From contig JBGFSC010000010.1 of assembly GCA_041694815.1 (NCBI GenBank), positions 32,001 through 96,000 on the forward strand: a stretch of DNA of 64,000 nucleotides, given 5' to 3'. The notes beneath the pieces are model-generated. The model was not told the DNA's origin. It ran no database searches and worked only from the letters and a program-made list of their open reading frames with translations. The DNA is from Elusimicrobiota bacterium (GTDB lineage: Bacteria > Elusimicrobiota > Elusimicrobia > UBA1565 > JACRDR01). This document shows positions 17,992-52,922 of the stretch, piece by piece. Numbering within the stretch: position 1 is the first letter of the stretch; the number at the start of each line of letters is the position of its first letter. Position numbers and translations under genes: made by a program.

Positions 17992-18410
17992 TGGCATTGC
18001 GCGAGGGTCATGGTCGCTGGGCACGCGTCCCCAGGACCTTTCGGGATGCATACGCAGGTTTTGCAAGTGCCTGGATTAGAAAGGTCGTCGATGGCATAGA
18101 CTCGAACCGGCACATCTGACATTCCGGTAAACGGCAATCCCGCCAACGTGCACGTGCACCCGCACGAACCCGACGCCGGTTGGCAAAGCATATCGGGTGT
18201 ATTTTGACAAATTCCATACTGATTCCATAGGCCCCAGGCGCGGTGCATGACCGCCTGACCCTGTAAAGGAGCCGCGACGGCCCCCGCGTAACGCTCGCCG
18301 AGGCTAATCCGCTGCATCACCATCGACAGCACCGCAGAGGCTACGGTGAGGAGTACCAGCCCGAAGACGAGCACCTGCACCAACGCCGCTCCGCGCCTTG
18401 CCACGTTCAT
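17988..18410 (-). CDS. PilX/GspK-like minor pilin, Cys-rich
   Basis: RRG|AALVQVL (no Glu5), hydrophobic helix, many Cys. Confidence 0.7.
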   Translation of the reverse strand: MNVARRGAALVQVLVFGLVLLTVASAVLSMVMQRISLGERYAGAVAAPLQGQAVMHRAWGLWNQYGICQNTPDMLCQPASGSCGCTCTLAGLPFTGMSDVPVRVYAIDDLSNPGTCKTCVCIPKGPGDACPATMTLAQCQ

Positions 18411-20107: not shown

Positions 20108-21784
20108 TTAATCGTTAATGATCGTGGGCGTGATGAAGATGACGAGATCGGTGTTTTTCCGCTCGACCTGGGTGCTGGTGAAAAACCAGCCGAGTATCGG
20201 GATGTATCCCAATAAAGGCACCTTGCGTACGCTCTTGATCTCCTTCGACTGCAAGAGCCCCCCCAGCACGATGGTTTGCCCGTTCTTGAGCCGGAGCAAG
20301 GTAGAGGCCTTGCGTTCGATCGGGTCCTTGACACCCTTGATGAGGTTAGAGCCGGTCACGTCGGTAAAGGAGGGCTCCACCAGCAGCGTGACATAGCCCT
20401 CCTTGTTGACCTGCGGCGTGACGTTCAACACGAGGCCGGTCTCGATGCGCTCGACCTGTATCGTCGACACCTGGCTGGTGCCCGTCAAGCCGGTCGTCGT
20501 GACCTGCGATACGGCCTCCCGGGTAGTAATCTCGATGGTGGCGCGCTTATTGTTGAGCGTGAGCACCTTGGGCTTGCCCAGGAAACGACCCTCCCCCCTC
20601 ACGATGATCGCCCGCAATAGCACCGTGAGCTGTTCCAAGCTCAGTTTCGCCGGCGTCAGCACGCCGATGCCGCTGGTGCCCGCCGCGCTCGAGCCGCTGC
20701 CCAAGCGGTCCAACGGATGGGTATGGCCCAGATTCTTGGGAAGATTGAGCGGGAAGCTGGTGGTGCGCGCCCCGCCTGTAAATTGCGCCAGCTCGCCGGC
20801 GGATCCGCCCCATTCCACCCCCAACTGCTGCATGCGGCTGGAATCGATCTCCACGATCTGCGCTTCGATCATTACCTGAGGGACCTTTTTATCTAGCTCC
20901 GCGATGATTTGTTCGACCTGCGGGAAAACCTCGGGGATGTCGGTCACGATCAAGGCGTTGCTGCGCGGCTCCAGCGTCACCGAGCCGTGGGGAGTGAGGA
21001 TGCCGTTGAGCACGTTGAGGATGGCGATGGGGCCGTCAGTCTTGCTGGCACTCCCGTAGGTGCCGACGCCGCCCCCCTTGCCCCCGCTGATCGTTCCGCC
21101 CGGGATCTGCCCGCCGGACAAGGCGCTTCCCGGCATGGCGAAGCCTCCCATGCCGCCCATGCCCATTCCCATCCCCATCCCCATGCCCATGCCTGCCTCC
21201 GGACCGGCCGTTTCCAGAGGGACCAGCGGGATGTAGTTGAGCGTATAAATCCGCGTAATGCGGTTGGGACCCTTTTCCGAGCTTTTGCGGATCACGAAGG
21301 TATTGCTGCGGCCCAGCTGATGGTAGGTCATGCCCTTGACCTCCAAGAGGATCTGCAGCGCTTCCCGCACGGTCACGTTTTGCAAGGAAGCCGTGACCTT
21401 CACCGCCGAGAGGCCCTCGGTGATGATGAAATTGAGCTTCGACTGCGCGGCGATCGAATCCAGGAATACGGCCAAGGGCGTCTCGCGGACGCGGACCGTC
21501 ACGCGCGTCTCAAGGGGCGGGGTGGGCGGCGCCGCGGGCGCTTCCGCCGGGGCGATCTGCACTCCTTGCGCCCGCTGGATCGAGGGAGCCGAAGGAACGT
21601 CCAAGGGGCGCCCTGCCGGGGCCTCACCCTGCACTTGGGACTGGAACTCCGGATTGGGTTCCGGCTCGGCTCGCTGCCTCTGGGCCCACGCGGTCGAAAG
21701 AGGAGTCCCCAACACGTGGAGGGCCCAAAGCGCGGCCGCCGGCAGGGCCGCCTTGCGAATCTTGTAACACTTGGATGTCTTCAT
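20108..21784 (-). CDS. pilQ: Type IV pilus secretin
   Basis: STN domain, N3 domain, QVMIEAQIVE, G..LNVTPQV, VPLLGYIPILGWFF, LVIFITPTI. Confidence 0.88.
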   Translation of the reverse strand: MKTSKCYKIRKAALPAAALWALHVLGTPLSTAWAQRQRAEPEPNPEFQSQVQGEAPAGRPLDVPSAPSIQRAQGVQIAPAEAPAAPPTPPLETRVTVRVRETPLAVFLDSIAAQSKLNFIITEGLSAVKVTASLQNVTVREALQILLEVKGMTYHQLGRSNTFVIRKSSEKGPNRITRIYTLNYIPLVPLETAGPEAGMGMGMGMGMGMGGMGGFAMPGSALSGGQIPGGTISGGKGGGVGTYGSASKTDGPIAILNVLNGILTPHGSVTLEPRSNALIVTDIPEVFPQVEQIIAELDKKVPQVMIEAQIVEIDSSRMQQLGVEWGGSAGELAQFTGGARTTSFPLNLPKNLGHTHPLDRLGSGSSAAGTSGIGVLTPAKLSLEQLTVLLRAIIVRGEGRFLGKPKVLTLNNKRATIEITTREAVSQVTTTGLTGTSQVSTIQVERIETGLVLNVTPQVNKEGYVTLLVEPSFTDVTGSNLIKGVKDPIERKASTLLRLKNGQTIVLGGLLQSKEIKSVRKVPLLGYIPILGWFFTSTQVERKNTDLVIFITPTIIND

Positions 21785-24561: not shown

Positions 24562-26307
24562 CTATTCCCTCGCCGCGACAATGAAGACCTGCACCTCGTA
24601 ATTCTCCCCTTCCGCCACCTTGGACTGTATCTCGATGCGCTTGGGGTCGACCCCGTACTTATTCACCAGCAGTGCGGAGACCATCTCAGCCCGGTTGCGG
24701 GCCAACTCCGAGGCCCCAGTCTCGCTCGAACCAGCGTAACCGACCAGTTCGAGGCCCTCGCGGGGATAACGCTCTAAGACCTCCGCTAGGCGGGTCACGG
24801 TCTGGTCTCCTTCCGCCGACATCTGCTGCGTCCCCTTGGCGAAAGCGATCTTATAGCTCACTGTGCCAATGGTCGCGGCCGCGGGAGCGGCCGGGGTGCT
24901 GTCACTGCTTCCGGCGACCGCCGCCGTGGGCGCCGCCCTGGGCAATACGGTCTTGACGAAACCGGGCCGGGGCTTGGTCGCTATATTTTTGGCCTTCCTC
25001 TGACCGCGGACTGCCGGCAGATTGATCTGCGCATCGTAGAGGCGTCGCGGGGCAGCTTTAACCGCGGGGGGTGGCTTGGCGGGCTGCGTCGACACCGAGA
25101 CCACCGACGCCCCCTCCAAGCTGATCCAGCGATGGAGCGTCCGGGTGCGGTTACGGGCATCCGTGGCGCTCAATACGGCTTCATAGCGCCCAGGCGCCAA
25201 GTCTTGCCCGAAATAGCTCTTCTTGCCGTTCCAAAAGATTTGGTGGAAGACCGGAGCGGTCCCCACCACCTCCTGTAGAGGCCTCAGGCCCCCGGCGGCG
25301 CCCGCGCTTTGCCGGAGCTGGAATTTCCATGACATCAAGCCCGCGGGAGGTTCCTGGATGGAAAATTCGATGATCGCCCCTTCCCCACGATCCCCCCGAA
25401 ACCTTTCCGGCCAGACCCCCAACGAAATAGGAGGGCCCGATTCGTCAAAGGTGACCGCATCCGTGCTGAGAGTCAACGGTTGATTATAGGTAAAAAGGAC
25501 AATGATGCCGCGAAAATCGGCCAGGGCCTTGGGCAGATCGACCTGGGAGAGAAGGAGGTTCACACGCACCCTGGCCGGGGAAATCCCCGAAACGGTCAGG
25601 TGGGAGCTGATGCCCATCGTGCGGCGCATGTCGAGGATCTTCGTTTCCCCGGTGGAAAGTCCCTCGGGAAGGATTGAGACCTGCGTTCCTCCCAGATTGT
25701 AGACCAGGCCGGTTAGGCTCTTGAGCATCGCTAGCGCCGTTTTCTTGAAACGGATGTCCTTGTCGAAGAAAAGGGAGGTAGGGATCCCCAGAGCCCGCGG
25801 GTTTTGCGAGTCCGCCATAACAATGCGGATTTCGGGATGATTCTCCAGCTCAGCCAAGAATCTTCGGACCTGCTCGCGGATCTTCAGCTCGATCTCCCTC
25901 TTCATCACCTCCCGCCGGTCCTGCGACGGCTCCAGGCGCGCCTTGGGCGGGGCCGGCCGCGCTACGGTCGGAGGCGCCAGGGGTTTTTGGCCGACGATCG
26001 GCGGGTGTATGCTCGCGCCGGAGTACATGCGCTGGGTGATAAGGTTCAAGTAATCGTTGGCCATGGCGCGTTCGGACGGTTCGCCGCTGGAAAGCACTTC
26101 CATGAAATGATCCATCGCCTCCGAGTCCTTGCCCTGGTCATAGGCCCTTATGCCCGCCTGCATCGTCTTGCTCAGGCCCGCCCCGACGTATTCCTCGCCC
26201 GGGCTGGGCGGATTCGCTCCCGCTCCCGATAGGGCGAGCGCTAAGACCGCGCAGAATGCCGCCGTCGGGCGCCGCAGACGCCCGCCGGAGGCGAAAAAGG
26301 CGTTCAC
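24562..26307 (-). CDS. Exported OmpA-like peptidoglycan-binding protein with TPR-like and FlgD-Ig-like domains
   Basis: Signal; IFWNGK...PGRY FlgD-like region; C-terminal IAF...LVGYA...LARNRAEMV...GVDPKRI OmpA domain. Confidence 0.7.
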   Translation of the reverse strand: MNAFFASGGRLRRPTAAFCAVLALALSGAGANPPSPGEEYVGAGLSKTMQAGIRAYDQGKDSEAMDHFMEVLSSGEPSERAMANDYLNLITQRMYSGASIHPPIVGQKPLAPPTVARPAPPKARLEPSQDRREVMKREIELKIREQVRRFLAELENHPEIRIVMADSQNPRALGIPTSLFFDKDIRFKKTALAMLKSLTGLVYNLGGTQVSILPEGLSTGETKILDMRRTMGISSHLTVSGISPARVRVNLLLSQVDLPKALADFRGIIVLFTYNQPLTLSTDAVTFDESGPPISLGVWPERFRGDRGEGAIIEFSIQEPPAGLMSWKFQLRQSAGAAGGLRPLQEVVGTAPVFHQIFWNGKKSYFGQDLAPGRYEAVLSATDARNRTRTLHRWISLEGASVVSVSTQPAKPPPAVKAAPRRLYDAQINLPAVRGQRKAKNIATKPRPGFVKTVLPRAAPTAAVAGSSDSTPAAPAAATIGTVSYKIAFAKGTQQMSAEGDQTVTRLAEVLERYPREGLELVGYAGSSETGASELARNRAEMVSALLVNKYGVDPKRIEIQSKVAEGENYEVQVFIVAARE

Positions 26308-26378
26308 CGCCTTACTTTAACCCCTAAAGGGTTAATGGGTTATTTCGGGGCTGTTAAAAAGTTATTAACAAACCGGCC

Positions 26379-26837
26379 TTATTGCCTGAGTGCGGAACAA
26401 GGGTCCGAGGGATCGCCGCAATTGCCGCCACTGAAGACGAAGGAGTCCTGGCAGCGGTCGTAGGTCAGGCGGTAGAGCCCGAAGGTGTCGGAGACGCCCG
26501 CGTTGGTCGTGCGGCGGTCCATGATGATCGTATAGCAGGTATTGTTGCCGCCCAAGCTCGGGGTGTAGTTCCTCAAGCCGTAATTGGTCCCGTTGAAGAT
26601 GATGTCCAACTGCGGTAGGTTGCTGATGTTGGAGATATAGGCGCCGTTGCGGGCCATGTGCCGCTCTTGCGCGGAGCGCACGGCACTGATGAAGTCATAG
26701 GCTTCGCTGACGCGCGAGCGCTCGACCACCTTAAAGTATTGCGGGATGGCGACCGAAGCCAGGATGCCTATGATGAGCACCACCACCAGCAGCTCGATGA
26801 GCGTAAATCCTTGCGAACGTCTGTTCTTGCGGGTCAT
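26379..26837 (-). CDS. Type IV pilin (candidate major pilin, PilA/PilE-like)
   Basis: SQG|FTLIELLVVVLIIGILASVAIPQY; strong RBS gaggagg before ATG 26837. Confidence 0.9.
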   Translation of the reverse strand: MTRKNRRSQGFTLIELLVVVLIIGILASVAIPQYFKVVERSRVSEAYDFISAVRSAQERHMARNGAYISNISNLPQLDIIFNGTNYGLRNYTPSLGGNNTCYTIIMDRRTTNAGVSDTFGLYRLTYDRCQDSFVFSGGNCGDPSDPCSALRQ

Positions 26838-26848
26838 CGTTGCCCTCC

Positions 26849-28066
26849 TCAATGTGTCCCGATCTGCGACAGTTGGAATATCGGCTGGAAAATCGACATC
26901 ACGATCACCCCGACGATCGCGCCGATGAAGACCACCATGATCGGGTCGATCATGCTGGTGAAACGCCGGACGAACTGGTCGACCTGCTCCCGGTAAAAAG
27001 CCGAGAGGGTGCCCAAGATGTCCGGCAACTTGCCCGACTCCTCTCCCATCCACATCATTTCCGTGATCAGCCCCGGGAAAACACCGGACTTCTTGAAGGA
27101 AACCGCGATGGCCTTGCCGCTGGCCACATCGTTACGTACCCCCTTGAGCGCCTGCTGGAAGATGAGGTTATCCGCGAATACTCCCTCCAAGACAGAGATG
27201 GCGTTGAGTATGCTGACACCGCTTTCCACCAACGTCGACAAGGTCGACAGCAGACGCTCCAAGAGTATATTCTTTATGAAATTGCCGAAGAAGGGCAGGC
27301 CGAACAGGAATTCCGCCTTCGAGCGCTGGCCTGATTGGGTCATCAGGTATCCCTTGATTACGAAGCAGACGGCTAAAACCCCCAAAAGGATGCTAGGAAG
27401 GTTATAGACCAGGCTCGTCGAGATGAAGATGATGGTCTGGGTCAAAACGGGCAGTTTGAGATTGAAGCTTTTGAAAATCTCGGCGAAGGTCGGCACGATC
27501 TTGAGGATGAAAAAGGTCAGCACGCCGACCGAGATGGTGCCCAGGACGGCGGGATAGGCGAGCGCCGTGACGATCTTGGCCTTCATCTCCTCCTGGGACT
27601 GGATGTAGCGCGAGAGCTGTTTAAGCGTCTTCGGCAGTTGCCCGCCCATCTCCCCCGCTTGGACCAGGGAGATCCATAGCGAGTCGAAGATGTGCGGATG
27701 CCGCTCGAGCGCCTTATAGAGCGCCGAGCCGCTGGCCACCTCCTTGGTCACGGCGACGATCGCTTCCCGCAGCACGGGGCTTTCGGAGTGCTCGCCCAAT
27801 AAGGATAGGGTTCGGACCAGAGGCACTCCGCCGTTTAACAGGGTGGCCAACTGCTCGGCGAAAAAGGCAAGGTCGCGCCCGCCGACGCCGGAACGCTTCA
27901 AGAGAAGCTGACTGAGGCCTTTGGCACCGGTGTCCGATCGCAAGGAAAGGATGAAAAATCCTTTGGATTGCAGGGAGGTGATGGCGGAATTCTCGTCGGC
28001 CGCGTCCAGGACTCCGGAGGTAGTGTCGCCCCGGCTATCCTGGACGGTATAGGCGAATTTGCCCAT
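26849..28066 (-). CDS. pilC: Type IV pilus platform protein (T2SS F family)
   Basis: QLATLLNGGVPL, AGEMGGQL, ALAYP, GEESGKL, IDP. Confidence 0.92.
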   Translation of the reverse strand: MGKFAYTVQDSRGDTTSGVLDAADENSAITSLQSKGFFILSLRSDTGAKGLSQLLLKRSGVGGRDLAFFAEQLATLLNGGVPLVRTLSLLGEHSESPVLREAIVAVTKEVASGSALYKALERHPHIFDSLWISLVQAGEMGGQLPKTLKQLSRYIQSQEEMKAKIVTALAYPAVLGTISVGVLTFFILKIVPTFAEIFKSFNLKLPVLTQTIIFISTSLVYNLPSILLGVLAVCFVIKGYLMTQSGQRSKAEFLFGLPFFGNFIKNILLERLLSTLSTLVESGVSILNAISVLEGVFADNLIFQQALKGVRNDVASGKAIAVSFKKSGVFPGLITEMMWMGEESGKLPDILGTLSAFYREQVDQFVRRFTSMIDPIMVVFIGAIVGVIVMSIFQPIFQLSQIGTH

Positions 28067-28080
28067 CGTTTTTTAGTGTA

Positions 28081-28704
28081 TCAGGAGCCTCCGACACTGT
28101 CAAGGCGGGTAATTTTCGCCTGGAGTTTGAGGAAGCGACGCCGCAAATCCTCGTTTTCAACTTTAAGCTCCTTGATCGCCTCGATTAATAAAGCCTCCAC
28201 CCCCTCCTTATGGAGCCACCGATAGCCCTCGGTATCCGTCTTGACCCATGCAGGTATAACACCCTCGACCTGTTGCGCCAATAGGCCCATGTGCTCACCC
28301 TCAAGTCCCTTCATCGGCTTGCGCCATTCAAATTTCACGCCATTAAGCCGAACCACCGTATTGAGGGCGGAGGAAAGTGGCCGAATATTCTTTTTGAGCC
28401 GCTCATCGGAAAGGTTTCCCCAAACCCCCGTACTATTGCCTGCTGTTCCCATGACGTGCAATTGCGCGCCTGGATTAGTGGTTCCAATGCCAACACTTCC
28501 GCCATCACGCACCAGAATCGTATTCGCGTTGCCCCGTCCAACCGTCACGATCTGGTTGTATACCCCGCTCGGCGCCGGATAGCTCGTGACCAGCGTTAGG
28601 TTCTCGGAGCCGAGCCCCAAAGGAACGAGCATTACGGCCGTCGCGAGCAGGACGCGCGCAGCACCGGTGTCGAAACGAATCGAGAAGCGTATCTCATGTA
28701 CCAT
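28081..28704 (-). CDS. Exported fibre-like protein with intramolecular chaperone (Peptidase_S74/ICA) domain
   Basis: N-terminal hydrophobic segment, ENLTLVTSYPAPSGVYN, GSVGIGTTNP..LHV.G repeat, SDERLKKNI, GLLAQQVE, LIEAIKEL coiled coil. Confidence 0.85.
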   Translation of the reverse strand: MVHEIRFSIRFDTGAARVLLATAVMLVPLGLGSENLTLVTSYPAPSGVYNQIVTVGRGNANTILVRDGGSVGIGTTNPGAQLHVMGTAGNSTGVWGNLSDERLKKNIRPLSSALNTVVRLNGVKFEWRKPMKGLEGEHMGLLAQQVEGVIPAWVKTDTEGYRWLHKEGVEALLIEAIKELKVENEDLRRRFLKLQAKITRLDSVGGS

Positions 28705-28756
28705 ATTCCCTCCCAGGAAAGTTGAGAAAGTGTAGAAAGTGGATACCTGGCACCGT
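28541..28756. repeat. Direct repeat copy 1 (leader plus 5' coding region)
   Basis: Matches 29211-29426 at offset 670; 28616-28756 differs at only 3 positions by manual comparison. Confidence 0.95.
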
Positions 28757-28762
28757 TAGGCG

Positions 28763-29374
28763 TCAAGGACAGGCACAATTACCCGAGGCGTCCGGCTCGC
28801 TGGCGCACTTACTGATCTCCCGGTTCGCATTCAAGCAGAGGGCCCCTCCCGTGGGCGGCCCCGCGTTGACACGGATCTTTCCAGCAACGTCGAACGGCGC
28901 GGCGGGGTTGCTAGTGCCGATACCGACCCAACCGTTGCTTTGCTTCAAATAAATTTGGTTAAAGTGCCCGTTCGGATAGGTCCCGAGAATCAAATCAGCG
29001 GGAGTTCCGCTGATCGCGTCGGAATAAATGCGCAAGGCGCCACCGATAGAGTCCACCTTGATCGCCGTATTGGCATTTCCGACCATCGATCGGAACGATG
29101 CCCTGCCGACCACGTCTAGCTTGGTATTGAATCCGTTGCCGGGATTCGAGATGCCGACGCCTACCGCTCCATCGGTACGCGCCAGGATCGTGTTTTCCCC
29201 CCCGTTGCCCACGGTGACGATCGAGTTATAGACCCCGGCGGGCGCGGGATAGCTCGTGACCAACGTCAGGTTCTCGGAGCCTAGTCCCAAAGGAACGAGC
29301 ATTACGGCCGTCGCGAGCAGGACACGCGCAGCACTGGTGTCGAAACGAATCGAGAAGCGTATCTCATGTACCAT
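28763..29374 (-). CDS. Exported fibre-like protein, paralogue of 28081-28704, with Cys-rich C-terminus
   Basis: Near-identical N-terminus; two G.VG(I/V)G.SNP...DV.G repeats; ends GGALCLNANREISKCASEPDASGNCACP; start ATG 29374 after GGGAGG. Confidence 0.85.
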   Translation of the reverse strand: MVHEIRFSIRFDTSAARVLLATAVMLVPLGLGSENLTLVTSYPAPAGVYNSIVTVGNGGENTILARTDGAVGVGISNPGNGFNTKLDVVGRASFRSMVGNANTAIKVDSIGGALRIYSDAISGTPADLILGTYPNGHFNQIYLKQSNGWVGIGTSNPAAPFDVAGKIRVNAGPPTGGALCLNANREISKCASEPDASGNCACP

Positions 29375-29426
29375 ATTCCCTCCCAGGAAAGTTGAGAAAG
29401 TGCAGAAAGTGGATACCTGGCACCGT
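29211..29426. repeat. Direct repeat copy 2
   Basis: Matches 28541-28756. Confidence 0.95.
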
Positions 29427-29432
29427 CGGTCT

Positions 29433-31181
29433 CTATTCTCCCGCGGTAACGGCCAGCACTTCCTCGGGAGTGGTGACACCCTCAAGCACCTTGCGCCAGC
29501 CGCTGGCGCGCATGCTCCACATGCCGGAGCGGCTCGCCGCCTGCCGGAGCTTGGAAACGTCGCCGCCATGCTTGTAGATGATCTCCCGAAGCTCCGGGGT
29601 GATAAAATAAATCTCGTAGATGGCCTTGCGGCCGTAGAAGCCGGTCTTGCTGCACTTGTCGCAACCTTGCTCCCTGTAAAAATTGATGGAGGAGGCCGGC
29701 GGCGGGTTGGCCAACATGGATTCCCGGATACACTGTTCGAATAGGGCCGGATCGGGACGGTATGGTTTTTTGCAATGGGAACAGAGCACGCGGACCAGCC
29801 GCTGGGCCGCGGTTAGGCAGAGGCTCGAGGAGAGCATGAAAGGCTCGATGCCCAAATCGATGAGGCGCGGCACCGCCTCCAGCGCGGAATTGGTGTGCAG
29901 GGTCGAAAGCACCAAGTGGCCGGTCAGCGCCGAGCGAAGGCATATCTCGGCGGTCTCCTGGTCGCGCACCTCGCCGACAAGGATGATGTCGGGGTCCTGG
30001 CGCAGGAACGAGCGCAGGGCGCTGGCGAAGGTCAGGCCGATGTTGGAGCGCACCTGCACCTGATTAATCCCGTCGAGCTTGAACTCGACGGGATCCTCGA
30101 TGGTCATGATGTTGACCTCGGGGGTCTTGACGGTATCGAGCACCGTATAGAGGGTTGTCGTCTTTCCCGAGCCCGTGGGACCCGTCAGGAAAATCAGGCC
30201 GTGCGGGAATTGCGCCGCGCGAAGCAGGTCTTCCTTCTGCCTCGGCTCCAAGCCCAGTTTGTTGATATCGAGCGTCGCCTGGCCCTTGTCGAGGATGCGC
30301 ATGACGACCTTTTCGCCAAACACCGTCGGGCAGATCGAGACGCGCAGATCGATGTTGCGGTTCTGCAGCTTGAGGATGATCGCCCCGTCCTGGGGAAGGC
30401 GTTTTTCGGCGATGTCGAGTTTGGCCAGGATCTTGATGCGGCTAACGATGGCCAAGAACAGGTCCCTGGGAGGCGGCTGCCGCTCGTGCAGGTCGCCGTC
30501 GATGCGGAAGCGCAACGTCACTCGCTCATCGTAGGCCTCCAGATGGATGTCGGAGGCCCGTTCGGCGATCGCCTGCTTGAGAACGGCATTTACGAAGGTG
30601 ACGACCTGCGCCCCACGCGCCTCGATGATCTCCTTGTCCAAATCCAGCCGCGAGTCGGAGGTGTCGACCTCCTGGACGTCGCCCGCCTCGGTGCCGGGCT
30701 TCTGCATGGAACGCTCGATCAAGTCGGAGCCGCCCGAGTAGAACTCGTCGATCGCCTTGAGTAATTGGCCTCGCGCGGCGATGAAAGGTTGTATCTCGTA
30801 GCCGGTCAATATCCGCAGATTATCGAGCACCATCATGTTCTCGGGATTGGCCATGGCGACGGCGAGCAGGCGGTTGTCCTCGAGGAACAACGGCAGCACG
30901 AGATTGTCGCGCGCGAAGCGCTCGTTGACCTTGCTCTCTAATTTTTGGCCGCGCTCGGCGCGCAGCACCTTGTTTTCCCGGGAAGCGAAGGGAATGTTCA
31001 TCTGCTTGGAGACGGCCTCGGCGATCTTCTCCTCGCTGGCAAATCCCAGTTTGACGATCGCTTCCCCTAATAGGCAGCCCGCCTGGGCCTGGGTCTTGAG
31101 GGCGCGCGCGAGCTGCTCCTGGTTGATAACGCCGTTTTGTACCAGGATGTCACCCAGGCGCAGCTTTTGCATTTTTGCCAT
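29433..31181 (-). CDS. pilB: Type IV pilus assembly ATPase with N-terminal MshEN domain
   Basis: RLGDILV..G.I..EQL..AL..Q; GPTGSGKTT; IEDPVE; LRQDPD; TGHLVLSTLH; tetracysteine motif. Confidence 0.93.
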   Translation of the reverse strand: MAKMQKLRLGDILVQNGVINQEQLARALKTQAQAGCLLGEAIVKLGFASEEKIAEAVSKQMNIPFASRENKVLRAERGQKLESKVNERFARDNLVLPLFLEDNRLLAVAMANPENMMVLDNLRILTGYEIQPFIAARGQLLKAIDEFYSGGSDLIERSMQKPGTEAGDVQEVDTSDSRLDLDKEIIEARGAQVVTFVNAVLKQAIAERASDIHLEAYDERVTLRFRIDGDLHERQPPPRDLFLAIVSRIKILAKLDIAEKRLPQDGAIILKLQNRNIDLRVSICPTVFGEKVVMRILDKGQATLDINKLGLEPRQKEDLLRAAQFPHGLIFLTGPTGSGKTTTLYTVLDTVKTPEVNIMTIEDPVEFKLDGINQVQVRSNIGLTFASALRSFLRQDPDIILVGEVRDQETAEICLRSALTGHLVLSTLHTNSALEAVPRLIDLGIEPFMLSSSLCLTAAQRLVRVLCSHCKKPYRPDPALFEQCIRESMLANPPPASSINFYREQGCDKCSKTGFYGRKAIYEIYFITPELREIIYKHGGDVSKLRQAASRSGMWSMRASGWRKVLEGVTTPEEVLAVTAGE

Positions 31182-31202
31182 GTCAAATCAGCGTTATCAA
31201 TG

Positions 31203-31230
31203 AGTATAACGGTATTGCTTGACTTGTCAA
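31203..31230 (-). promoter_or_regulatory. Sigma70 promoter upstream of pilB
   Basis: TTGACA-N16-TATACT on the minus strand. Confidence 0.7.
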
Positions 31231-31256
31231 TACTTCGGCGCGCAGAGGCCGTGTTA

Positions 31257-33812
31257 TTATTGCCCGAGGCTTTGCAGCCACTGCCGGGCGTGGGCGTTGC
31301 CCGGATCGGAGGCGAGCACGGCGCGGAAGGCGGCGGCCGCCTCCTGGCGGCGCCCCACCTTGGCCAGCGCCTGGCCGAAGCTTAATTGCAGGCTGGCGTT
31401 GCCGGGCTCGGCGCGGACCAGCGGGGCCAGCATTTCGACAGCCGCGCCGGGATTGCCGGCCACCAGTTCTAGATTGGCCGCGTAAAAGCGCATCTTCGGC
31501 CATTTCGGAAAGGTCTTGGCCAGATCCCGAGCCATTTGGACGGTGCCGGCCGAGAAATCCTTGCGCCCGATACGCGCCTCGAGCTCCTTGTAGCGGGCCA
31601 CCTCGCGCAAAATGGAGGGCGGTGCGATCTTGGCGCGATCGGCGGCGGAGCGGAGATTAAGCTCCGCTTGCGAGAGCTCCGGATTGGCCTCCAACGCCCG
31701 CGCCCAGACCCGCGAGGCGCCCGAGAAATCGCCTCCCGTCGCTAGGAGATAGCCTAGATTGTTGAGGAAACCGACGTCCTCAGGGAAAAATCGCAGGGCC
31801 GTCCTCAGGGACTCGATGGCCTCGGTCCTGAAACGGGCCGGATCGCGTAGGTAGAGGCGGTTGAGATTGACATAGAGCTCGTAAGAGATCGGGTTGATAA
31901 GGGCTGAAACCCGGTAGAAGCCGAGTGCCTCCTCCCAGCGGCCCAGGCGCGCTCCGAGCACCGTGCCCATGTTGAAGTAGATCTCGTCGTAGCCCGCGTT
32001 CGCCTTGAGCGCCTCGCGATAGGCCCATAAGGCCTTGTCGAGCTGATCGGAGCGGGCGTAGGCGTTGCCCAACTCGTAATTGGCGTTCACATCCCTGGGA
32101 TGCCAGCGGTAGGCCGCTTCCAGCCGCTGCAGCGATTCCATCAGGCGGCCCGAACGCGCGAGCTTAAAACCCTGGAAGAAGTGGACCTCCCGGTTCCATT
32201 GCCGCCACCAAAGCCGCCCCCCCCAGCAGGCCGTGGCCAGCACGAGCAGGGCGACCGCCGCCGACGCCGCGCGGGACGGCCTCCAGGAGCGCCATGCCTT
32301 TTCCTCCGGTTGGTCCGGCGCGGCGCCCACGGCGATGCCCGCCTGCCACCAGAGCAGGAAGGCGGGCACGGCGAAATGCATCGAGACGTTGAGGAGATTG
32401 TCGACCCACATGCCCGCCACCGCGCTGGCCGCCGCCCACTGCCAGACCTGGCGCTCCTTGCGCCGGTGCCAGCGCCAAGCGCAGAAAGCGAAGACGCACC
32501 ACAACCACGCCTGAACGCCCAGGCCCAGCACGCCGGTCTGGGAGAATATCTCGAGAACCTCGTTGTGGCAATTGTTGGCGTGAGTCCGCAAGCCGCTAAA
32601 AGCGGGGATATTGAGGAGGCAGCCCTGATAGAAGGGGTAGAAGAGCTCGAAGAGCCCCCATCCCTTGCCGAGCAGCCAGTTCTCCTGCCCCATCAGCCAG
32701 GAGGCCGACCAAATCAGCAGACGCTGGTACAGCGGGCTGTAGGGAGACGTCTCGACGGCGGTCCAGATCGTGGAGAGCTCCTGGACGCGTTCGATCACGG
32801 TGGGCGTGCTGGGAGCGCTCAGGCTTTTCGGCCAGAACGGGATGAGAAGCAGCGCCAGGCAGATGACGGTCCCGTGTCCCTGGAGATTCCCGCGCAACTT
32901 AGCGCGGATGGCCGGAGAAAGGAAAAGCAGCGCCACCGCCGCTATGGCCCCGGCCCACGAGGAGCGCGTCAGGCTGCACAAAAGGCAGGCCTCGAGCGTC
33001 AGGAAGACGGCGGCGTATGTCGCCCGAGCCCAGCGCGTCGGGGCGTAAAAATAATAAGCCAGGGCCACTGGCATGAGCAGGACCATGTACGAAGACATGA
33101 AATTGGGATTTCCAAAGGTGGATACCGAGCGCCCCCCGTAGGGGTTGAGCACCTTGGGCCAGATCCACTCGACGTTGAAGTACTGGAACACCCCGTAGAG
33201 CGAGGAAAGGAACCCGGCGACCAGCGCCAGGTGCCAGAAGGCGTGCATGCCGCCGGCGCGGGTCCAGGCGACGGCGATTCCGACGCCGGCGAGCCACAGG
33301 AAGGCCCCGTACGGGTCCCAGCAGCGCGTCCAAGGGTCCCAGGCGCCGGAAGACGGCGACTTCAAGGACGAATACAGCGCCCAGCCCAGCGCCCAGGCCA
33401 GGGCGAAGGCCGCCCATCGCGTGGGCTGGGCCGGCGATTCCTCGCGGGGGTTTCGGGAGATGAGCACCGCGGCGTAAAAAGGCACGAGCGTATTGACGAT
33501 CGTAAAGAGAAAGACGCGCAGGCCCTCGGCCTTGATCGCGTCCCGGAAAAACGGCATATGCCCGAAATACGAGAGCGTCCAAGTGACGGCGCATACCGTC
33601 AGCCAGCAGGCGAGCGGTAAGTCCAGCGCCGTTTTCGGGAAGCGCCAGTCGCCATGGCTAAGTCCCGAGCACGCGTAGGCGGCGCAGGCGGCTAGCAGGA
33701 AAACATTGAGAAGGGCGATTTGCGTGAAATAGGGGTTGCGCGTCAAGTCTGTGAAGAACAGCAGGGGGCAGACGAAGTGGCAGGCGGCCAGAAGGGCGGT
33801 AAAGGCGGTCAA
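31257..33812 (-). CDS. O-antigen ligase (Wzy_C) family membrane protein with C-terminal TPRs
   Basis: STFGNPN, TRSSW, RLLIW, G.GWG.F, HNEVLE, DNL; multiple TPRs. Confidence 0.88.
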   Translation of the reverse strand: MTAFTALLAACHFVCPLLFFTDLTRNPYFTQIALLNVFLLAACAAYACSGLSHGDWRFPKTALDLPLACWLTVCAVTWTLSYFGHMPFFRDAIKAEGLRVFLFTIVNTLVPFYAAVLISRNPREESPAQPTRWAAFALAWALGWALYSSLKSPSSGAWDPWTRCWDPYGAFLWLAGVGIAVAWTRAGGMHAFWHLALVAGFLSSLYGVFQYFNVEWIWPKVLNPYGGRSVSTFGNPNFMSSYMVLLMPVALAYYFYAPTRWARATYAAVFLTLEACLLCSLTRSSWAGAIAAVALLFLSPAIRAKLRGNLQGHGTVICLALLLIPFWPKSLSAPSTPTVIERVQELSTIWTAVETSPYSPLYQRLLIWSASWLMGQENWLLGKGWGLFELFYPFYQGCLLNIPAFSGLRTHANNCHNEVLEIFSQTGVLGLGVQAWLWCVFAFCAWRWHRRKERQVWQWAAASAVAGMWVDNLLNVSMHFAVPAFLLWWQAGIAVGAAPDQPEEKAWRSWRPSRAASAAVALLVLATACWGGRLWWRQWNREVHFFQGFKLARSGRLMESLQRLEAAYRWHPRDVNANYELGNAYARSDQLDKALWAYREALKANAGYDEIYFNMGTVLGARLGRWEEALGFYRVSALINPISYELYVNLNRLYLRDPARFRTEAIESLRTALRFFPEDVGFLNNLGYLLATGGDFSGASRVWARALEANPELSQAELNLRSAADRAKIAPPSILREVARYKELEARIGRKDFSAGTVQMARDLAKTFPKWPKMRFYAANLELVAGNPGAAVEMLAPLVRAEPGNASLQLSFGQALAKVGRRQEAAAAFRAVLASDPGNAHARQWLQSLGQ

Positions 33813-36286
33813 CGCTTCGGGGGAACGGCGCGTAAGCGGCTCTGGACTACCTCAAGGTTACGGGCCGCCGTCGCGGCCTGAGGGTCGAGCTCCAAGGCGC
33901 GCTGGTAGGCCTTCTGCGCCTCGGGAAGGCGCCCGGCCATGAACAAGGCATTGGCGAGATGCGTGTAGCCCTCCGCCCAATAATCGTGCCGATGCACCCA
34001 CAGGCCATCGATATTGGTGTATCTTTGATAAGAGAGTATGGTCCTGCGCAGGAAGTCGTTCTGCGCCAGCCATGGGACCACCTGGCATTTTTCGCCGTCG
34101 ATCTGCGCCTGGTACATTTCAATGGCCTTGTCGTACTGGCGCCGCGCCATGTAGATCTGTCCCATGCGGTAGAAGTTAGGCGGGAATATCGGGTCGAGAT
34201 TGCGGTACATCTCGAAGCGCTTCAAGGCCATGTCCCAGTCGCGCTGCCCCTCCTCCTCCCTGCCGTTGCGCATATGCCAGTCCCCGCGCTTGAGGTAGAG
34301 AACCCCTACCTGATGGTGCATTTGCACGTAGTTCGGGGCGCGGGCCCGCACCTCCTCGTATGCGGCGAAGGCGCGCTCGAAGTCGTCCCGCGCGACGTTA
34401 TCCTTGTCCCCCCAGTCGGGGTTGTATATCTTCTCCATGTTGAATCGGTCGTTGAATACGTTGCCCTTGAAATAGAACGACATCACGTAAGCCGGGTTGA
34501 GCTCGCCGACCTTGAAGTAATGGCGCAGGGCCTGCTCCCAGTTCTGCTGTTTCGAGAAAAAGATGGCGATGTTATGATAGACGTCCGCTCGGAAAAAGCC
34601 CCAGGCGAGATTGACGGGTAGCATCGTCAGGGCAATGAGCATGGGAACCAGGGCGTTCCTCGCCAAGCCAGCGATCCTGGCGAAGGCCACTCCCAAACCG
34701 AAAACACAGGCCAAAAAGCATATCCAGGAAATCCACCATTGCAGGACCTCGCCGCCCAGGGTGAGCCGGAAAAGCGGGCCCTGCAGCTCCGAGAATTGTT
34801 GAATAAGGCGGTAACCGACATAGGCAAGGCAGCCCCAAGCCCCCAGCCGAGCGGGCCACAAAAAGAAAGCGGAGAGGGATTGGAGCAGCCCTTCCCCTGG
34901 AGGGGCTGCGAGAGGGGCTGCGGGAGGGACCGCGCGGACCGCCTTGAGATCAGCCAAGGCGACGCCCCGGGAGAGATTGACCACGACCCCGGAAAGCAGG
35001 CCCAGATAGACTCCCGAGGAGACGAAACGCAGGCTGACATCGAAAAAGTTATGGGCCAGCATGCCCTGGAAGGCGACCAGGAATCCCAGGAGCTCGTAGG
35101 CGCGCGGTGGAGCCCGCTGGCCGGCAATGAGCCCCCTCGTCCAGTTCGACAGGGCGCGATAGGCGACGGCCCAGGTGCTCAGCATCAGCCAGAGGAAAAT
35201 CCCGAAACCCAATATCCCCTCGTCGAAAAGAACCTCGAGGAATTCGTTTTCGGCATGGTCGGTCTCGGTATTATGCTTACCCTCGATATGGAAGATCGGA
35301 GGCCGGCGGAAGGCCGGATAAATCACCCAAAAGCTGCCCAGCCCCGTGCCGATAAGGGGCTGGGTCATGATCATCTCCCAGGTGGCTTCCCATGTGAACA
35401 ACCGGAAATTGACGGAGGTGAAGCTTCCCTGCAGCTTGATCCAGACCGCGACCAGCGCGGCGGCGAACACCGCGGCCATCCCGCAGACGATCCGCCGCCA
35501 ATACTGCAGCAGGGTCTGACGATCGAAAAAGAACAGATAGGTTCCCACGTACAGGATGCCGGTGATGGCCAAGGCGATCCAGGCGCCCTTGGTCTGGGTC
35601 CCGTATATGACGAAGAGGTGGATGCCCATCAGCACGAGCAGCTTCAGCTCGCGGCTTTTCAGGAATTGGCTGAAAATGATGGGCAGCATCAGCACCAGGA
35701 AGTCCGCCAGGAAATTGGGATTGCCGTAGGTCGAGAAGACGCGCGCGCTGAAGGCATGACGCCAAATGAACGGATCGATCCCCTTGCCGATCCCCGGCGG
35801 GAAGAAGTAGATGTCGACCCACTGGAGGAGGCCGTAGCCGGCGCTAATCCACGCGCTTAAGATCAAAAAGCGCACCAGCCGTCTGATGGCGCGTTCGTCG
35901 AACTCCCGGATCACGATGAGCGGGACGGTCATATAGAAGATCCGTCGGAGGAAGAAATCGGTGGAGGACCAGTGGTAGGGGGCGTGTATGAAGGAGAACA
36001 CGCCGTAGGCCAGCGATGCCAGGAAGGGGGCCAAGCAGAGCAGGTCGTCCTTCGAAAAGGCGGAGAAAAGCCCTTCTTCGAGCAGGCGGCAGAGCCAGAG
36101 CGCGATGAGGCTGACCCCTCCCATCTGGACCAGGGTGATCTTGACCTGGGCGGAGTCGTAGGTGCGCAGATAAAAGGCGTCGGAGACGAGCAGGTAGAGG
36201 ACCGGGAGCCACCAGAGGATGGCCTTGCGTGAAAAAGCGATGCAATCGCTGCTGGAAATCGCGGAGTCGAATTTCTGCGCCTTCAC
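33809..36286 (-). CDS. O-antigen ligase (Wzy_C) family membrane protein with C-terminal TPRs
   Basis: STYGNPNF, TKGAW, RLFTW, GTGLGSF, HAENEFLE; start uncertain (GTG 36286 or TTG 36334). Confidence 0.86.
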   Translation of the reverse strand: MKAQKFDSAISSSDCIAFSRKAILWWLPVLYLLVSDAFYLRTYDSAQVKITLVQMGGVSLIALWLCRLLEEGLFSAFSKDDLLCLAPFLASLAYGVFSFIHAPYHWSSTDFFLRRIFYMTVPLIVIREFDERAIRRLVRFLILSAWISAGYGLLQWVDIYFFPPGIGKGIDPFIWRHAFSARVFSTYGNPNFLADFLVLMLPIIFSQFLKSRELKLLVLMGIHLFVIYGTQTKGAWIALAITGILYVGTYLFFFDRQTLLQYWRRIVCGMAAVFAAALVAVWIKLQGSFTSVNFRLFTWEATWEMIMTQPLIGTGLGSFWVIYPAFRRPPIFHIEGKHNTETDHAENEFLEVLFDEGILGFGIFLWLMLSTWAVAYRALSNWTRGLIAGQRAPPRAYELLGFLVAFQGMLAHNFFDVSLRFVSSGVYLGLLSGVVVNLSRGVALADLKAVRAVPPAAPLAAPPGEGLLQSLSAFFLWPARLGAWGCLAYVGYRLIQQFSELQGPLFRLTLGGEVLQWWISWICFLACVFGLGVAFARIAGLARNALVPMLIALTMLPVNLAWGFFRADVYHNIAIFFSKQQNWEQALRHYFKVGELNPAYVMSFYFKGNVFNDRFNMEKIYNPDWGDKDNVARDDFERAFAAYEEVRARAPNYVQMHHQVGVLYLKRGDWHMRNGREEEGQRDWDMALKRFEMYRNLDPIFPPNFYRMGQIYMARRQYDKAIEMYQAQIDGEKCQVVPWLAQNDFLRRTILSYQRYTNIDGLWVHRHDYWAEGYTHLANALFMAGRLPEAQKAYQRALELDPQAATAARNLEVVQSRLRAVPPKR

Positions 36287-36378
36287 CCGAACGTCATCAT
36301 ATAAAATAAAAGGCGTCAAAATAGGAAGCGCCAAGCCGCTGGCACCCGCCCCGCTTTCCTGTTATCCTCCTCTATAAG

Positions 36379-37821
36379 GTGAAGCTCGCCATACAACTCA
36401 GCGTGGTGCTGTGCGCGCTCATCTTGCTGATCGTCTGCGGCACTCTGTGGAGCAGCCATCGCTCCGAACGCCGGCACTTGGAGGAGAGCCAGGACAATTT
36501 CGTCCTGGCCGGCCTCCGGGCGCTTTCCGAAGCCTGCCAAAGGCCGCTGGAAGAACAGCCGCGCTGCCTCCAAGCCCTTCATTTCTTCGTCCGAATGAGC
36601 CCTTCTCAAGCCTTCAAGCAGGTACTGCTCCTGGACCATCGCTCCCGGGTAATCGTCGACAGCCGCGCCCTCTCGGGCGAGCGGGGGCTTCGGGGCGCGC
36701 TCCTGGAGGCCGGCTACCTGCGGCAGATGCAGAGCCGGCGCGAGCCTCAAATCCTCAAAAACGTCATGCAGGACGATGCCTTGCGCCGCATGTACTCCAT
36801 TCCCGTCGCCCTCCCGGAAGGAGTGGGAACGCTCCTGGCCATCTTCGACGAAAGGTCGCTGCGAGGGAATCTCGGCTGGCTCGATCAGGACGCCCGGCGA
36901 CGCTTGCTGCAAGTAGGACTCATGGGCGTCGGGTTCGGCATCCTTTTCTCCGTGCTGTGGGTGCTCTACTGCCTGGCTCCCCTGCATGCCCTCGTCGGCG
37001 CGGCTCGGCGGGTCGCGGCCGGGGATTTCGCCAGCCGAGTGCCGGAAGGGCGCGACGACGAGCTAGGGCATGTCGCGGCGGAGTTTAACCGCATGGCCCG
37101 GCGCCTCCAGGAGCTCGATGACATGAAGGACCGGTTCATGGCCCAGATCACCCACGACCTGCGCAATCCCCTGATGGCGATGATCGGCTACGCCGAGTTG
37201 TCGCTCGGAGGCTACCGCGGGGCCCTCACCCCCGAGCAAACGGAAAGCCTCCAGGTGATCGCGCGCAACGGCTCGGCATTGGCCGACCTCATCAACAATA
37301 TCCTTGACGTCAGCAAGCTCGAGTCCAAGCGCATGAATTTCTCGCCCACGGCCATGGATCTTCGCCACGAGATTGATTCCGTCCTCGAGCTTCTCAAGGT
37401 CCGGGCCGACCAATACAAGATACGCCTCGAGTCCCAGCTCGCGCCGGACGCCGTGGAAGCTTACGCCGATCCACAGGCCTTCCGGCGCGTGCTCACCAAC
37501 CTCGTCTCCAACGCCCTCAAATTCACGCCCGAGGGAGGCCGGGTGCTCGTGGGCGCCGCGCGGCCCAAGCCCGGGGAAATCTCCATCTCCGTATCGGATA
37601 GCGGGATCGGGATTCCGCCGGATCGACTCGGCGACTTGTTCAAGAAGTTCTCCCAAATCCCGGAAACCAGAAATAAGGTCCGTCCCTCCGGGGGAACCGG
37701 CTTGGGCTTGGTCATCTGCAAGGAGATCGTGGAGGCCCACGGAGGCCGCATCGGGGTCAAGAGCCCCCCAGGGGAGGGCGCCACGTTTTTCTTTTCCCTT
37801 CCCGAGAAAGCCCCCGCTTAA
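36379..37821 (+). CDS. Membrane sensor histidine kinase (HAMP-HisKA-HATPase)
   Basis: Two TMs, DELG HAMP, THDLRNP, NLVSNALKF, DSGIG, GTGLGL. Confidence 0.93.
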   Translation: MKLAIQLSVVLCALILLIVCGTLWSSHRSERRHLEESQDNFVLAGLRALSEACQRPLEEQPRCLQALHFFVRMSPSQAFKQVLLLDHRSRVIVDSRALSGERGLRGALLEAGYLRQMQSRREPQILKNVMQDDALRRMYSIPVALPEGVGTLLAIFDERSLRGNLGWLDQDARRRLLQVGLMGVGFGILFSVLWVLYCLAPLHALVGAARRVAAGDFASRVPEGRDDELGHVAAEFNRMARRLQELDDMKDRFMAQITHDLRNPLMAMIGYAELSLGGYRGALTPEQTESLQVIARNGSALADLINNILDVSKLESKRMNFSPTAMDLRHEIDSVLELLKVRADQYKIRLESQLAPDAVEAYADPQAFRRVLTNLVSNALKFTPEGGRVLVGAARPKPGEISISVSDSGIGIPPDRLGDLFKKFSQIPETRNKVRPSGGTGLGLVICKEIVEAHGGRIGVKSPPGEGATFFFSLPEKAPA

Positions 37822-38207
37822 GGAAAGCGCCTTTCGATCGTCTGCGACCAACGACCCAGGGACTCGCCTTCGGCGCTCAAGTGCAGGCTTAGGCGGCGGT
37901 CCCAACGCCAAGTCCCTTCTCCATTCAGCGAGATATCTCCCTTGCCTTCGAAACGCAGCGCGCCGCGTCCCCGCAGCAAGGAGAATGGATCGATCCTCCA
38001 ACGGATGTCGCAAAGCCTCCTTCTAGGAGAGCCGAAGAGCAGATCCGCCCGCCCGTCCCAAAAACCGCCCTTGGCGTCCGCTAGCGCCACCGCGCCGCCA
38101 GCGGCGCGCCCCACCGCTACGGCCATCAAGTCCGCAGGAGCGCGAACGACGAGGCTCGCCAGATAAACAACAGCGGCGGCGAGCGTCCACGCGATTCTTC
38201 CCTTCAT
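37818..38207 (-). CDS. gspN: GspN-like protein, short
   Basis: APA...LADAKGGFWDGRA...W....SLLRG; last gene of the gsp operon; only 129 aa. Confidence 0.6.
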   Translation of the reverse strand: MKGRIAWTLAAAVVYLASLVVRAPADLMAVAVGRAAGGAVALADAKGGFWDGRADLLFGSPRRRLCDIRWRIDPFSLLRGRGALRFEGKGDISLNGEGTWRWDRRLSLHLSAEGESLGRWSQTIERRFP

Positions 38208-38620
38208 ATCAGGCGCAGCCGGACGTTGACCTTTCCGCTTTCGGGGTGACGCTCGAAGGCGGCTTGGCGGACTTCGATTCCTGCGGTCCGCAGATCCTCG
38301 AGCCAACGGAGCACGGCCTCGAAGGGGACCGCCTCCAAGACCGCCGAAACGGAGGAATCGCTCTCCAGGGCGATGCTAGAGATTTGCTGACGCACGCCGC
38401 GCCGCCGGGCCGACGCCTCCATCGTCGCAACGAAATCCGAAGCGCGCGCGGACGTCGAGGCCCTCAGGGCCTTTATTTTGCCGGCCTGCAGGCGCATCGT
38501 CACGAGCTTGGCTCTGGCCTCGAGCATTTCCCGCCGCAAGCGGTCGAGGCGCCATCGCATGGGCAAGGCCGACAAAAGCCCAATCGCCCCCGCGGCGGCG
38601 AACGCCCATCCCGCCTTCAT
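38204..38620 (-). CDS. gspM: T2SS protein M
   Basis: TM, coiled coil, VPFEAVLRWL; operon order. Confidence 0.8.
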   Translation of the reverse strand: MKAGWAFAAAGAIGLLSALPMRWRLDRLRREMLEARAKLVTMRLQAGKIKALRASTSARASDFVATMEASARRRGVRQQISSIALESDSSVSAVLEAVPFEAVLRWLEDLRTAGIEVRQAAFERHPESGKVNVRLRLI

Positions 38621-43513: not shown

Positions 43514-43516
43514 CGC

Positions 43517-52723: not shown

Positions 52724-52737
52724 GTCTTGCCTCCACG

Positions 52738-52755
52738 TGCTATACAAGTATAGCA
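52738..52755. promoter_or_regulatory. Palindromic operator upstream of relBE
   Basis: TGCTATAC-AA-GTATAGCA perfect inverted repeat. Confidence 0.7.
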
Positions 52756-52789
52756 TAAGGAGCGTCGCTTTACAATGACGAGAAGAGAA

Positions 52790-52861: not shown

Positions 52862-52922
52862 GTTGCGCTTAGTTTACAATACTTTTTCGAGGAGATGAAC
52901 TTAAGGCATCTCTTCGTTTTAT

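Follow-up and report, generated by a model that had tools for sequence, protein, structure and literature searches.

Two small tail-fibre-like genes between pilB and pilC of an Elusimicrobiota type IV pilus operon: members of a phylum-wide mini-fibre family and probably not dedicated pilus parts

Why should two genes for small proteins resembling phage tail fibres stand between the genes for the motor and the platform protein of a type IV pilus, and do their products serve that pilus? The question is raised by a stretch of 64,000 nt from an Elusimicrobiota bacterium (assembly GCA_041694815.1, contig JBGFSC010000010.1, positions 32,001-96,000 of the forward strand; hereafter the window), in which two genes, here called cassB and cassA, lie between pilB and pilC (Table 1). 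In a preliminary description of the locus they had been taken for an expandable array of swappable tail-fibre-like adhesins at the disposal of the pilus. The comparative analysis reported here suggests another answer, to which we assign a probability of about 0.55: both genes are members of an Elusimicrobiota-wide family of mini-fibres, predicted to be Sec-exported and likely trimeric; in this lineage only, they were probably inserted and partly duplicated between pilB and pilC, and they are probably not dedicated parts of the pilus.

The genes pilB, cassB, cassA and pilC are all read from one strand, with gaps of 58, 58 and 14 nt, and the stretch from pilB to pilC shows no terminator-like site on the coding strand. 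The start of cassB was placed at MVHEIRF, preceded by the ribosome-binding site GGGAGGG; the 268-aa open reading frame (ORF) listed for this gene begins inside pilB. The presence of two like units in this interval, as first described, is confirmed by a direct repeat of 219 nt with 92% identity and a spacing of 670 nt; so is the common leader of 52 nt, whose two copies differ by 1 mismatch in an exact comparison, and in both units the stop codon of the upstream gene does lie 6 nt from the repeat edge. The count of 3 mismatches over 141 nt of coding sequence was too low: 3 is the figure for the first 90 nt, which rises to 7 in 129 nt and to 10 in 141 nt. The 3' parts are more AT-rich, as had been noted, the GC content at third codon positions (GC3) being 0.63 in cassA (3' part 0.57) and 0.71 in cassB (3' part 0.69) vs 0.80-0.83 in pilB, pilC and the pilin gene; these two values are the lowest among window genes of more than 105 aa.

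Along the two genes, codons 1-45 carry 7 synonymous differences and 1 non-synonymous difference, after which divergence rises steadily; nucleotide identity declines gradually and reaches background at about codon 90, and the proteins are 76% identical across 92 aa. Such a graded rise of synonymous divergence fits a conversion tract in the 5' block, and this block of about 140-190 nt (leader plus the first 30-45 codons) appears to have been homogenised by gene conversion or to stem from a recent partial duplication. The earlier proposal of a diversification by recombination through the constant region is supported as far as the 5' block looks homogenised; a role of the constant region in the swapping of cassettes is not favoured.

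The leader itself proved to be part of a dispersed element. About 40 nt of it recur throughout the genome, as found by BLAST of the repeat against the genome, and 67 arms were counted when a 21-nt core with at most 3 mismatches was used. Of these arms 19 stand alone, both cass leaders included, and the others form 24 convergent pairs in which a short loop separates an arm from its inverted counterpart; a reversed-pattern control gave 0 arms in this genome. An arm contains, besides the 21-nt core, between two and five 9-nt units in tandem, and is frequently flanked by TA or a stop codon, and the cass ribosome-binding region continues the loop edge of one element copy (examples of element copies are G000:C9:10326-10408 and C22:41686-41767, in this genome). 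With its many near-identical, intergenic copies, mostly in inverted pairs, the element resembles repetitive extragenic palindromic sequences (REP) or miniature inverted-repeat transposable elements (MITE). The number of arms in each of 40 related genomes is 0-7, so that the element has expanded only in this genome, and the present 5' end of cassA and cassB was therefore shaped in this lineage. Several single arms are located upstream of tRNA-like sequence or of gene starts, in the same orientation, and half-elements may act as promoters or leaders. A sigma-54 promoter in the leader, considered on account of a TGGCAC read by eye, was rejected, the -12 element being missing at the right spacing.

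What the two genes encode agrees with the tail-fibre-like character first attributed to them, as judged from the S74 domain of cassA, from the match of the GxVGIGT repeat to the Bdellovibrio fibre Bd3182 (PDB 8ojn) and from a confident homotrimer model of cassB. In cassB both GxVGIGT repeats (nt 29141-29173 and 28904-28936) were found as described, and so was the Cys-rich end; the protein has no Pfam or NCBIfam match and no S74 domain. It can be aligned over its whole length with 23 family members, breaks off at their C.AG position, and has neither the head domain nor the terminal Cys-Cys of the family. Prediction of a trimer structure, one of the checks proposed at the outset, gave for residues 34-203 an ipSAE of 0.88 in 3/3 runs vs 0.00 for the best of 3 controls, on the basis of an alignment of 24 full-length family sequences (A2), with a pLDDT of 80, a contact agreement of at least 91% and an interface along residues 46-202. 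In the calibration of this score 20/30 true homomers and 1/23 single chains reach the mark, which is a rough guide for a model made with its own alignment and three copies. The monomer models are too poor for a fold search (pLDDT 58.7 for cassB with A2, 35.5 for cassA modelled by AlphaFold2 without an alignment), as is to be expected for an intertwined fibre, and the ESM Atlas gave, with cassB, weak leads only, to unnamed clusters and phage tail proteins.

In cassA a single GxVGIGT repeat (nt 28471-28503) leads straight into the S74 domain, which is followed by a C-terminal helical region. The combination of repeat and S74 chaperone had been recognised before, and the domain is confirmed by PF13884 (E 1.2e-14, 54.8 bits vs a cut-off of 22, full profile 1-58); it is the sole S74 match in the genome. 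Its SDERLK corresponds to the Ser...Lys dyad SDxxxK, as this motif is defined in the study of the Bdellovibrio fibres (Caulton et al., 2024; PMC10769870), and aligns with SDERLK of 8jov (E 4.5e-6) and SDRRIK of 6f45 (E 4.4e-4), the best matches among solved tail fibres. After trimer assembly the chaperone would cleave itself off at Ser99 and leave a stub of about 65 residues. The protein aligns with a 360-aa S74 fibre of a relative (G037, locus L026) minus the stalk of about 140 aa of the latter. The S74 part matches 570 phage records, all below 60% identity; a recent phage donor was considered and is not indicated, as the best phage match (47% identity) is no nearer than that in a relative from the Elusimicrobiota (43%). 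With neither stalk nor tip in cassA, and with cassB ending before the family head domain, the designation of the two products as adhesins is not borne out.

Both proteins are placed in the family by a shared N-terminal module, in which a short basic segment of the IRF type and about 17 hydrophobic residues are followed by GS-ENLTLVTSYPAP-GVYN and a GxVGIGTxxP repeat. Read by eye, the first part of the module would be a Sec signal, with cleavage immediately ahead of the invariant Glu34. One of the two proteins (P0001) matches 34/41 related genomes, mostly in frames of 180-330 aa and often in tandem arrays. When one genome per species was scanned, 277/392 pattern matches could be confirmed, of which 80 loci were kept; their titles are Elusimicrobia, Elusimicrobiota or Endomicrobium in 73 cases, "bacterium" in 5, and Omnitrophota and Planctomycetales in 1 each. 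In the alignments of 36 sequences (A1) and of 24 full-length sequences (A2), the consensus starts with RR, a hydrophobic stretch and EL.SE..TLTTYYPAPSGVY, followed by ..M.TT.NT.LAR.GG.VGIGT, a variable middle, a second repeat and a C.AG.Y head region, with P43, G47, Y49 and G74 invariant in both. The constant N-terminus and variable C-terminus seen in the window are thus a real architecture of the whole family. Members usually end in hydrophobic-Cys-Cys-Pro/Lys/Asn, at times in CCPCPxGGCxxL (e.g. L104:5989-6783, L223:5992-6723, L003:1495-2040).

Taken by itself, the fibre repeat is generic: a profile containing it gave 79,464 matches at E <=1e-3 among 1.84 billion representatives, dominated by giant GxVGIGT-repeat proteins and uninformative on the N-terminal module, the first 55 residues of which occur in 0/150 of the best giant proteins. 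A metagenome scan with the first 60 aa returned 55 loci, 30 of them of at least 5 kb, with a best identity of 57%, besides motif matches of 22-25 residues reaching 72%, and a word-index protein search with residues 1-70 returned the two window proteins and one other. Among the genomes compared, the genus contains this genome alone. A literature search of narrow scope gave nothing on an Elusimicrobiota fibre family or on a link between S74 and pili, and this Elusimicrobiota-wide family of small tail fibres is apparently undescribed. The conserved N-terminus is best read as a module for export, docking or maturation throughout the family, and not as a handle for recombination.

A third paralogue is present elsewhere in this genome (G000:C23:22453-23001); it is full-length, ends in Cys-Cys-Lys and has the native codon usage (GC3 0.81). 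Its stop codon is overlapped by the gene for a divergent S26 signal peptidase (GDSLEG; C23:22998-23474), and its neighbours are a thioesterase-like ORF, so read by eye, this peptidase and a B12/radical-SAM gene, with no pil genes. The pairing of S26 with a family member is also seen in G018:C10 and L121. The possibility that the N-terminus is a signal for a private S26 peptidase was rejected as a general account, since S26 adjoins a family member in only 2/41 genomes and 1/80 loci.

Among the relatives, genes for radical-SAM enzymes recur in the neighbourhood of the family. The neighbours of the 80 loci were clustered and scanned against Pfam and NCBIfam, and HxsB and HxsC were counted by tblastn, without correction for kinship. 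Downstream of the family gene come radical-SAM genes that match HxsC and HxsC4 best, below the cut-off in each case (up to 163 bits vs 268); HxsB, another recurrent neighbour, is a true match (TIGR03978, 505 bits vs a cut-off of 370), and a SufS-type cysteine desulfurase, a B12-radical-SAM protein and an HxsD-like protein (44.5 bits vs a cut-off of 50) recur as well. HxsC-like neighbours are found in 26/80 genome loci and 16/55 metagenome loci and HxsB in 9/80 and 4/55, giving 35/80 and 20/55 for HxsB/HxsC-like neighbours (loci L098-L177, e.g. L102:5986-12207, and L189-L243). The upstream context varies among the loci and the radical-SAM gene is adjacent in either orientation, and its retention in such varied surroundings argues for more than inherited synteny. 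In the phage-defence system HXS, the radical-SAM enzymes HxsB and HxsC mature, together with HxsD, an exported effector, HxsA (Li et al., 2026; PMC13128918). By analogy, the small fibre may be a radical-SAM substrate, in a variant of the HXS antiphage system. If radical-SAM enzymes do modify these fibres, a type of protein maturation tied to phage defence would extend to trimeric fibre proteins and would offer a handle on the cell-surface biology of an uncultured phylum. In the genome studied here neither HxsB nor HxsC reaches the cut-off, and tblastn with the versions from other Elusimicrobiota gave no match; weak generic radical-SAM matches are present on contig C48. A further neighbour of family members is a polytopic protein of 390 aa with a weak match to Peptidase_A24 (prepilin peptidase; 23.7 bits, cut-off 26.5) at L115:6635-7813, L103 and L158, also found in the metagenome loci L196, L210 and L211, possibly a dedicated processing enzyme.

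Whether the family is tied to the pilus was judged from both sides. Orthologues of pilC are present in 40/41 genomes, and those of pilB are 59-73% identical to the window gene. Across 38 pilC loci of relatives (37 orthologues and one second copy), the pilB-pilC interval is <=130 nt in 34, holds an insert of about 2.2-2.4 kb in 3 (G001, with pilB off-contig, G002 and G005, all of the taxonomic family of the window), and no pilB lies within 5.8 kb of the second copy. A cassette in this interval was found in 0/38, which speaks against an expandable array. The insert of the three genomes encodes a polytopic membrane protein of 650-700 aa with C-terminal tetratricopeptide repeats (TPRs; L055:2760-4865, L070:3887-5929, L056:107-2059) and is unrelated to the cassettes; the pilB-pilC spacer is therefore a recurrent insertion spot within this taxonomic family, with cassettes in this genome alone among those searched. 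In the opposite direction, within <=6 kb on each side of the 80 genome loci of the family, pilB was found in 0/80 and pilC in 1/80, and around the 55 metagenome loci each of them was found in 0/55. The claim that the fibres serve the pilus is therefore not supported: the module is almost never near pil genes, an outcome that the preliminary description had itself named as counting against it. The profiles for pilin N-methylation, PF07963 and TIGR02532, match neither cassA nor cassB (Pfam E <=0.01, NCBIfam E <=0.1), and the neighbouring pilin does match. The PilY1 domain PF05567 has no match in either protein; over the genome it has none either, but as it is equally silent in every control genome, this result is uninformative.

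In the favoured scenario, family members would have landed in the pilB-pilC spacer in this lineage, and the 5' block would then have been duplicated, or homogenised by gene conversion, possibly with the help of the repeat arm. cassA and cassB would be co-transcribed with the pilus motor genes, and their products cut by signal peptidase before Glu34 and trimerised in the periplasm, mature cassB being a short fibre of about 170 residues without head domain. On this account the window would display an ordinary process, the insertion and partial duplication of a multigene-family member in an operon beside a dispersed repeat, and not a new pilus adhesin system; what deserves attention is the phylum-wide family of mini-fibres.

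Several observations weigh against this scenario. The history of insertion and duplication is drawn from one genome, the case against a pilus part is one of comparative absence, and both the export and the cleavage site lean on a reading by eye. In addition, a family member stands directly before a different T2SSF paralogue, on the same strand, in G038:C58; another lies 1.3 kb after yet another T2SSF paralogue in G037:C582, within a run of same-strand genes headed by a pilin; and a third is placed 5 kb beyond the orthologous pil operon in G018:C10. In G038 and G037, which represent two taxonomic families other than that of the window, the distance to the T2SSF gene is below 1.5 kb, and the chance expectation of such cases near T2SSF is about 0.3-0.7 by a rough estimate from gene density, so that a weak but real link of the family to T2SSF-type machines may exist. 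Moreover, an insertion between essential, tightly packed pilus genes without disruption of the operon may reflect selection for co-expression.

The alternative that fares best among the rest, although we consider it unlikely, is that cassA and cassB assist the type IV pilus, or a machine of the type II secretion system (T2SS) kind, as functional accessory proteins, with a repertoire changed by recombination through the 5' block; they would either be displayed as fibres on the pilus or the cell pole or form trimers in the periplasm that are pushed through the secretin. The embedding of both genes in the direction of pilB and pilC, with short gaps and without an intervening terminator-like site, would suit such a role, and so would the homogenised 5' block, the secretin in the operon itself, a full T2SS upstream, at 8 kb, and the members beside other T2SSF paralogues in G038 and G037; a possible interplay with type IV pili is also raised by the authors of the study of the Bdellovibrio fibres (PMC10769870). 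Against these points stand the 0/38 relatives' loci with a cassette, pilB and pilC being adjacent in 34, the near absence of both genes around family members in genomes and metagenomes, the lack of a pilin-type N-terminus as indicated by the missing N_methyl match, and the absence of a tip or head domain from both copies.

That the two genes are a decaying remnant, i.e. two truncated, functionless leftovers of one or more inserted fibre genes that are tolerated through read-through to pilC, is in our view improbable. It would account for the end of cassB before the head domain and the terminal CC motif, for the stalk that cassA lacks in comparison with its nearest S74 relative, for a GC3 that is the lowest among window genes of more than 105 aa, and for the absence from this genome of the HxsB/HxsC-like partners of relatives. 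Against it, neither frame is broken and both have a start codon preceded by a ribosome-binding site, the differences in codons 1-45 are mostly synonymous (7 vs 1), the S74 motif is preserved, and the cassB trimer is confidently modelled along residues 46-202.

A more far-reaching proposal, which we regard as a long shot, takes the mini-fibres for real working members of the pilus operon: they would form a class of Sec-exported, non-pilin trimeric fibres associated with the pilus or the secretin, which would trimerise in the periplasm, cassA with the aid of its own S74 chaperone, and be displayed or expelled by PilB/PilC, and the wider family would consist of surface or periplasmic fibres matured by radical-SAM enzymes with a logic like that of HXS. 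Were this reading true, the recruitment of such fibres could guard or decorate the pilus, which often serves as a phage receptor.

An assembly artefact, in which two strain alleles or an unrelated contig end were joined through the dispersed repeat arm, is extremely improbable even though the genome is metagenome-assembled and an arm of the 67-copy repeat stands at the junction ahead of either unit, given that the copies differ at 1 + 10 positions (leader plus first 141 nt of coding sequence) and are separated by long k-mers, that the sequence of either junction (stop codon plus 6 nt) is unique, and that the pilB...pilC synteny is kept on a contig of 141,921 nt in a genome with 0.48% contamination.

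Table 1. Coordinates, in the window, of the two fibre genes, their leaders and the pilus genes around them.
Feature	Position	Strand	Description
pilB-type assembly ATPase	29433-31181	minus	PF00437 (T2SSE), E 7.6e-135; PF05157 (MshEN N-domain), E 2e-15
cassB leader	29375-29426	minus	Single arm of genome-wide palindromic repeat, then GGGAGGG ribosome-binding site
cassB	28763-29374	minus	203 aa; between pilB and pilC
cassA leader	28705-28756	minus	Second single arm of the same repeat plus ribosome-binding site
cassA	28081-28704	minus	207 aa; between cassB and pilC
Peptidase_S74 of cassA	28240-28410	minus	Intramolecular chaperone auto-processing; aa 99-155, starts SDERLK (Ser99...Lys104)
pilC-type platform protein (T2SSF)	26849-28066	minus	PF00482, E 1.5e-57; starts 14 nt past the cassA stop
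Type IV pilin	26379-26840	minus	Same operon; PF07963 N_methyl, E 1.4e-9
Secretin of the pilus operon	20108-21784		Downstream part of the operon

Beyond pilC, the operon continues with the pilin, an OmpA-domain protein, PilM-, PilO- and T2SSB-like proteins, the secretin, more pilins and a YdjC-like protein, which stands at the operon end (17041-18066). A sigma-70-like promoter match (28075-28103, minus strand; TTGACA-17-TACACT, 10/12, with TG), which is a consensus match only, falls within the 3' end of cassA, shortly before pilC. Directly upstream of pilB are two Wzy_C (O-antigen-ligase-like) plus TPR proteins (31257-36334), of a type that keeps its position by pilB in many relatives; together with the YdjC-like protein they may be a machinery for pilin glycosylation. 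Further upstream lies the T2SS operon, complete with GspC, D, E, F, H, J, K, L and M (about 38.2-47.8 kb), followed by two genes without known family at 36.3-38.0 kb (joint span 36316-47808). Genes for a ParE toxin and for TraY-like and BrnA/CopG-like antitoxins, with a low GC3 of 0.55-0.69, form a small toxin-antitoxin islet at 52246-53132. No integrase, reverse transcriptase or phage structural (capsid, tail) genes were found among the family matches within the window, and Rfam gave no match over 26000-31500.

Among the described systems, the tip adhesins of the PilY1/PilC type and the priming minor pilins resemble cassA and cassB in being encoded in pilus gene clusters, and differ from them in fold class, the former being pilins or beta-propellers and the latter likely trimeric fibres. 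In the pilE/pilS type of antigenic variation a single expressed locus is accompanied by silent cassettes that are promoter-less and 5'-truncated, whereas both cass copies keep the full leader, the ribosome-binding site, the start and the signal segment, and the only further paralogue of the genome, on contig C23, is a complete gene and not a silent copy. With the S74 tail fibres and tailspikes of phages (8jov, 6f45; endosialidase-type), cassA shares the Ser...Lys spacing of SDERLK followed by a helical region; unlike them, it has a signal-like N-terminus and not one for virion attachment, a payload of only about 65 residues before S74, and no phage context.

The likeness to HXS concerns the relatives rather than the window. 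In other Elusimicrobiota the fibre gene heads an operon with HxsB and with HxsD-like and HxsC-like genes, a position in which a substrate gene would be expected, and HxsA and, by prediction, the fibre are both exported with a processed N-terminus (PMC13128918). The two differ in that cassA and cassB have, by eye, no His-Xaa-Ser repeats and in that this genome contains neither HxsB nor HxsC above the cut-off.

Of the described systems, the mosaic adhesive trimer (MAT) fibres of Bdellovibrio bacteriovorus come closest; they comprise S74 and non-S74 subfamilies and have a signal peptide, a conserved beta-rich N-domain of about 130 aa in all paralogues, a trimeric stalk and swapped tips (Caulton et al., 2024; PMC10769870). 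MATs are much larger, with about 600-1,150 aa, long stalks and elaborate tips, whereas cassA and cassB are tipless proteins of about 200 aa that would work in the manner of minimal MATs; a variable tip domain is found in neither, and a trimeric fibre is indicated for cassB alone, by the model only. The MAT N-domain also exceeds the module of about 55-60 aa that precedes the first repeat here, after a signal-like segment. The Elusimicrobiota family is further set apart by its TLTTYYPAPSGVY motif, by its terminal hydrophobic-Cys-Cys-Pro/Lys, by its frequent radical-SAM neighbours and by its occurrence in a non-predatory phylum. What the two have in common is that they are chromosomal phage-tail-fibre-like proteins with S74 (SDxxxK) and non-S74 members and with C-terminal parts exchanged in evolution, and that their stalk, likely trimeric in the family described here, is made of the same type of repeat, the cassA repeat matching that of Bd3182 (8ojn).

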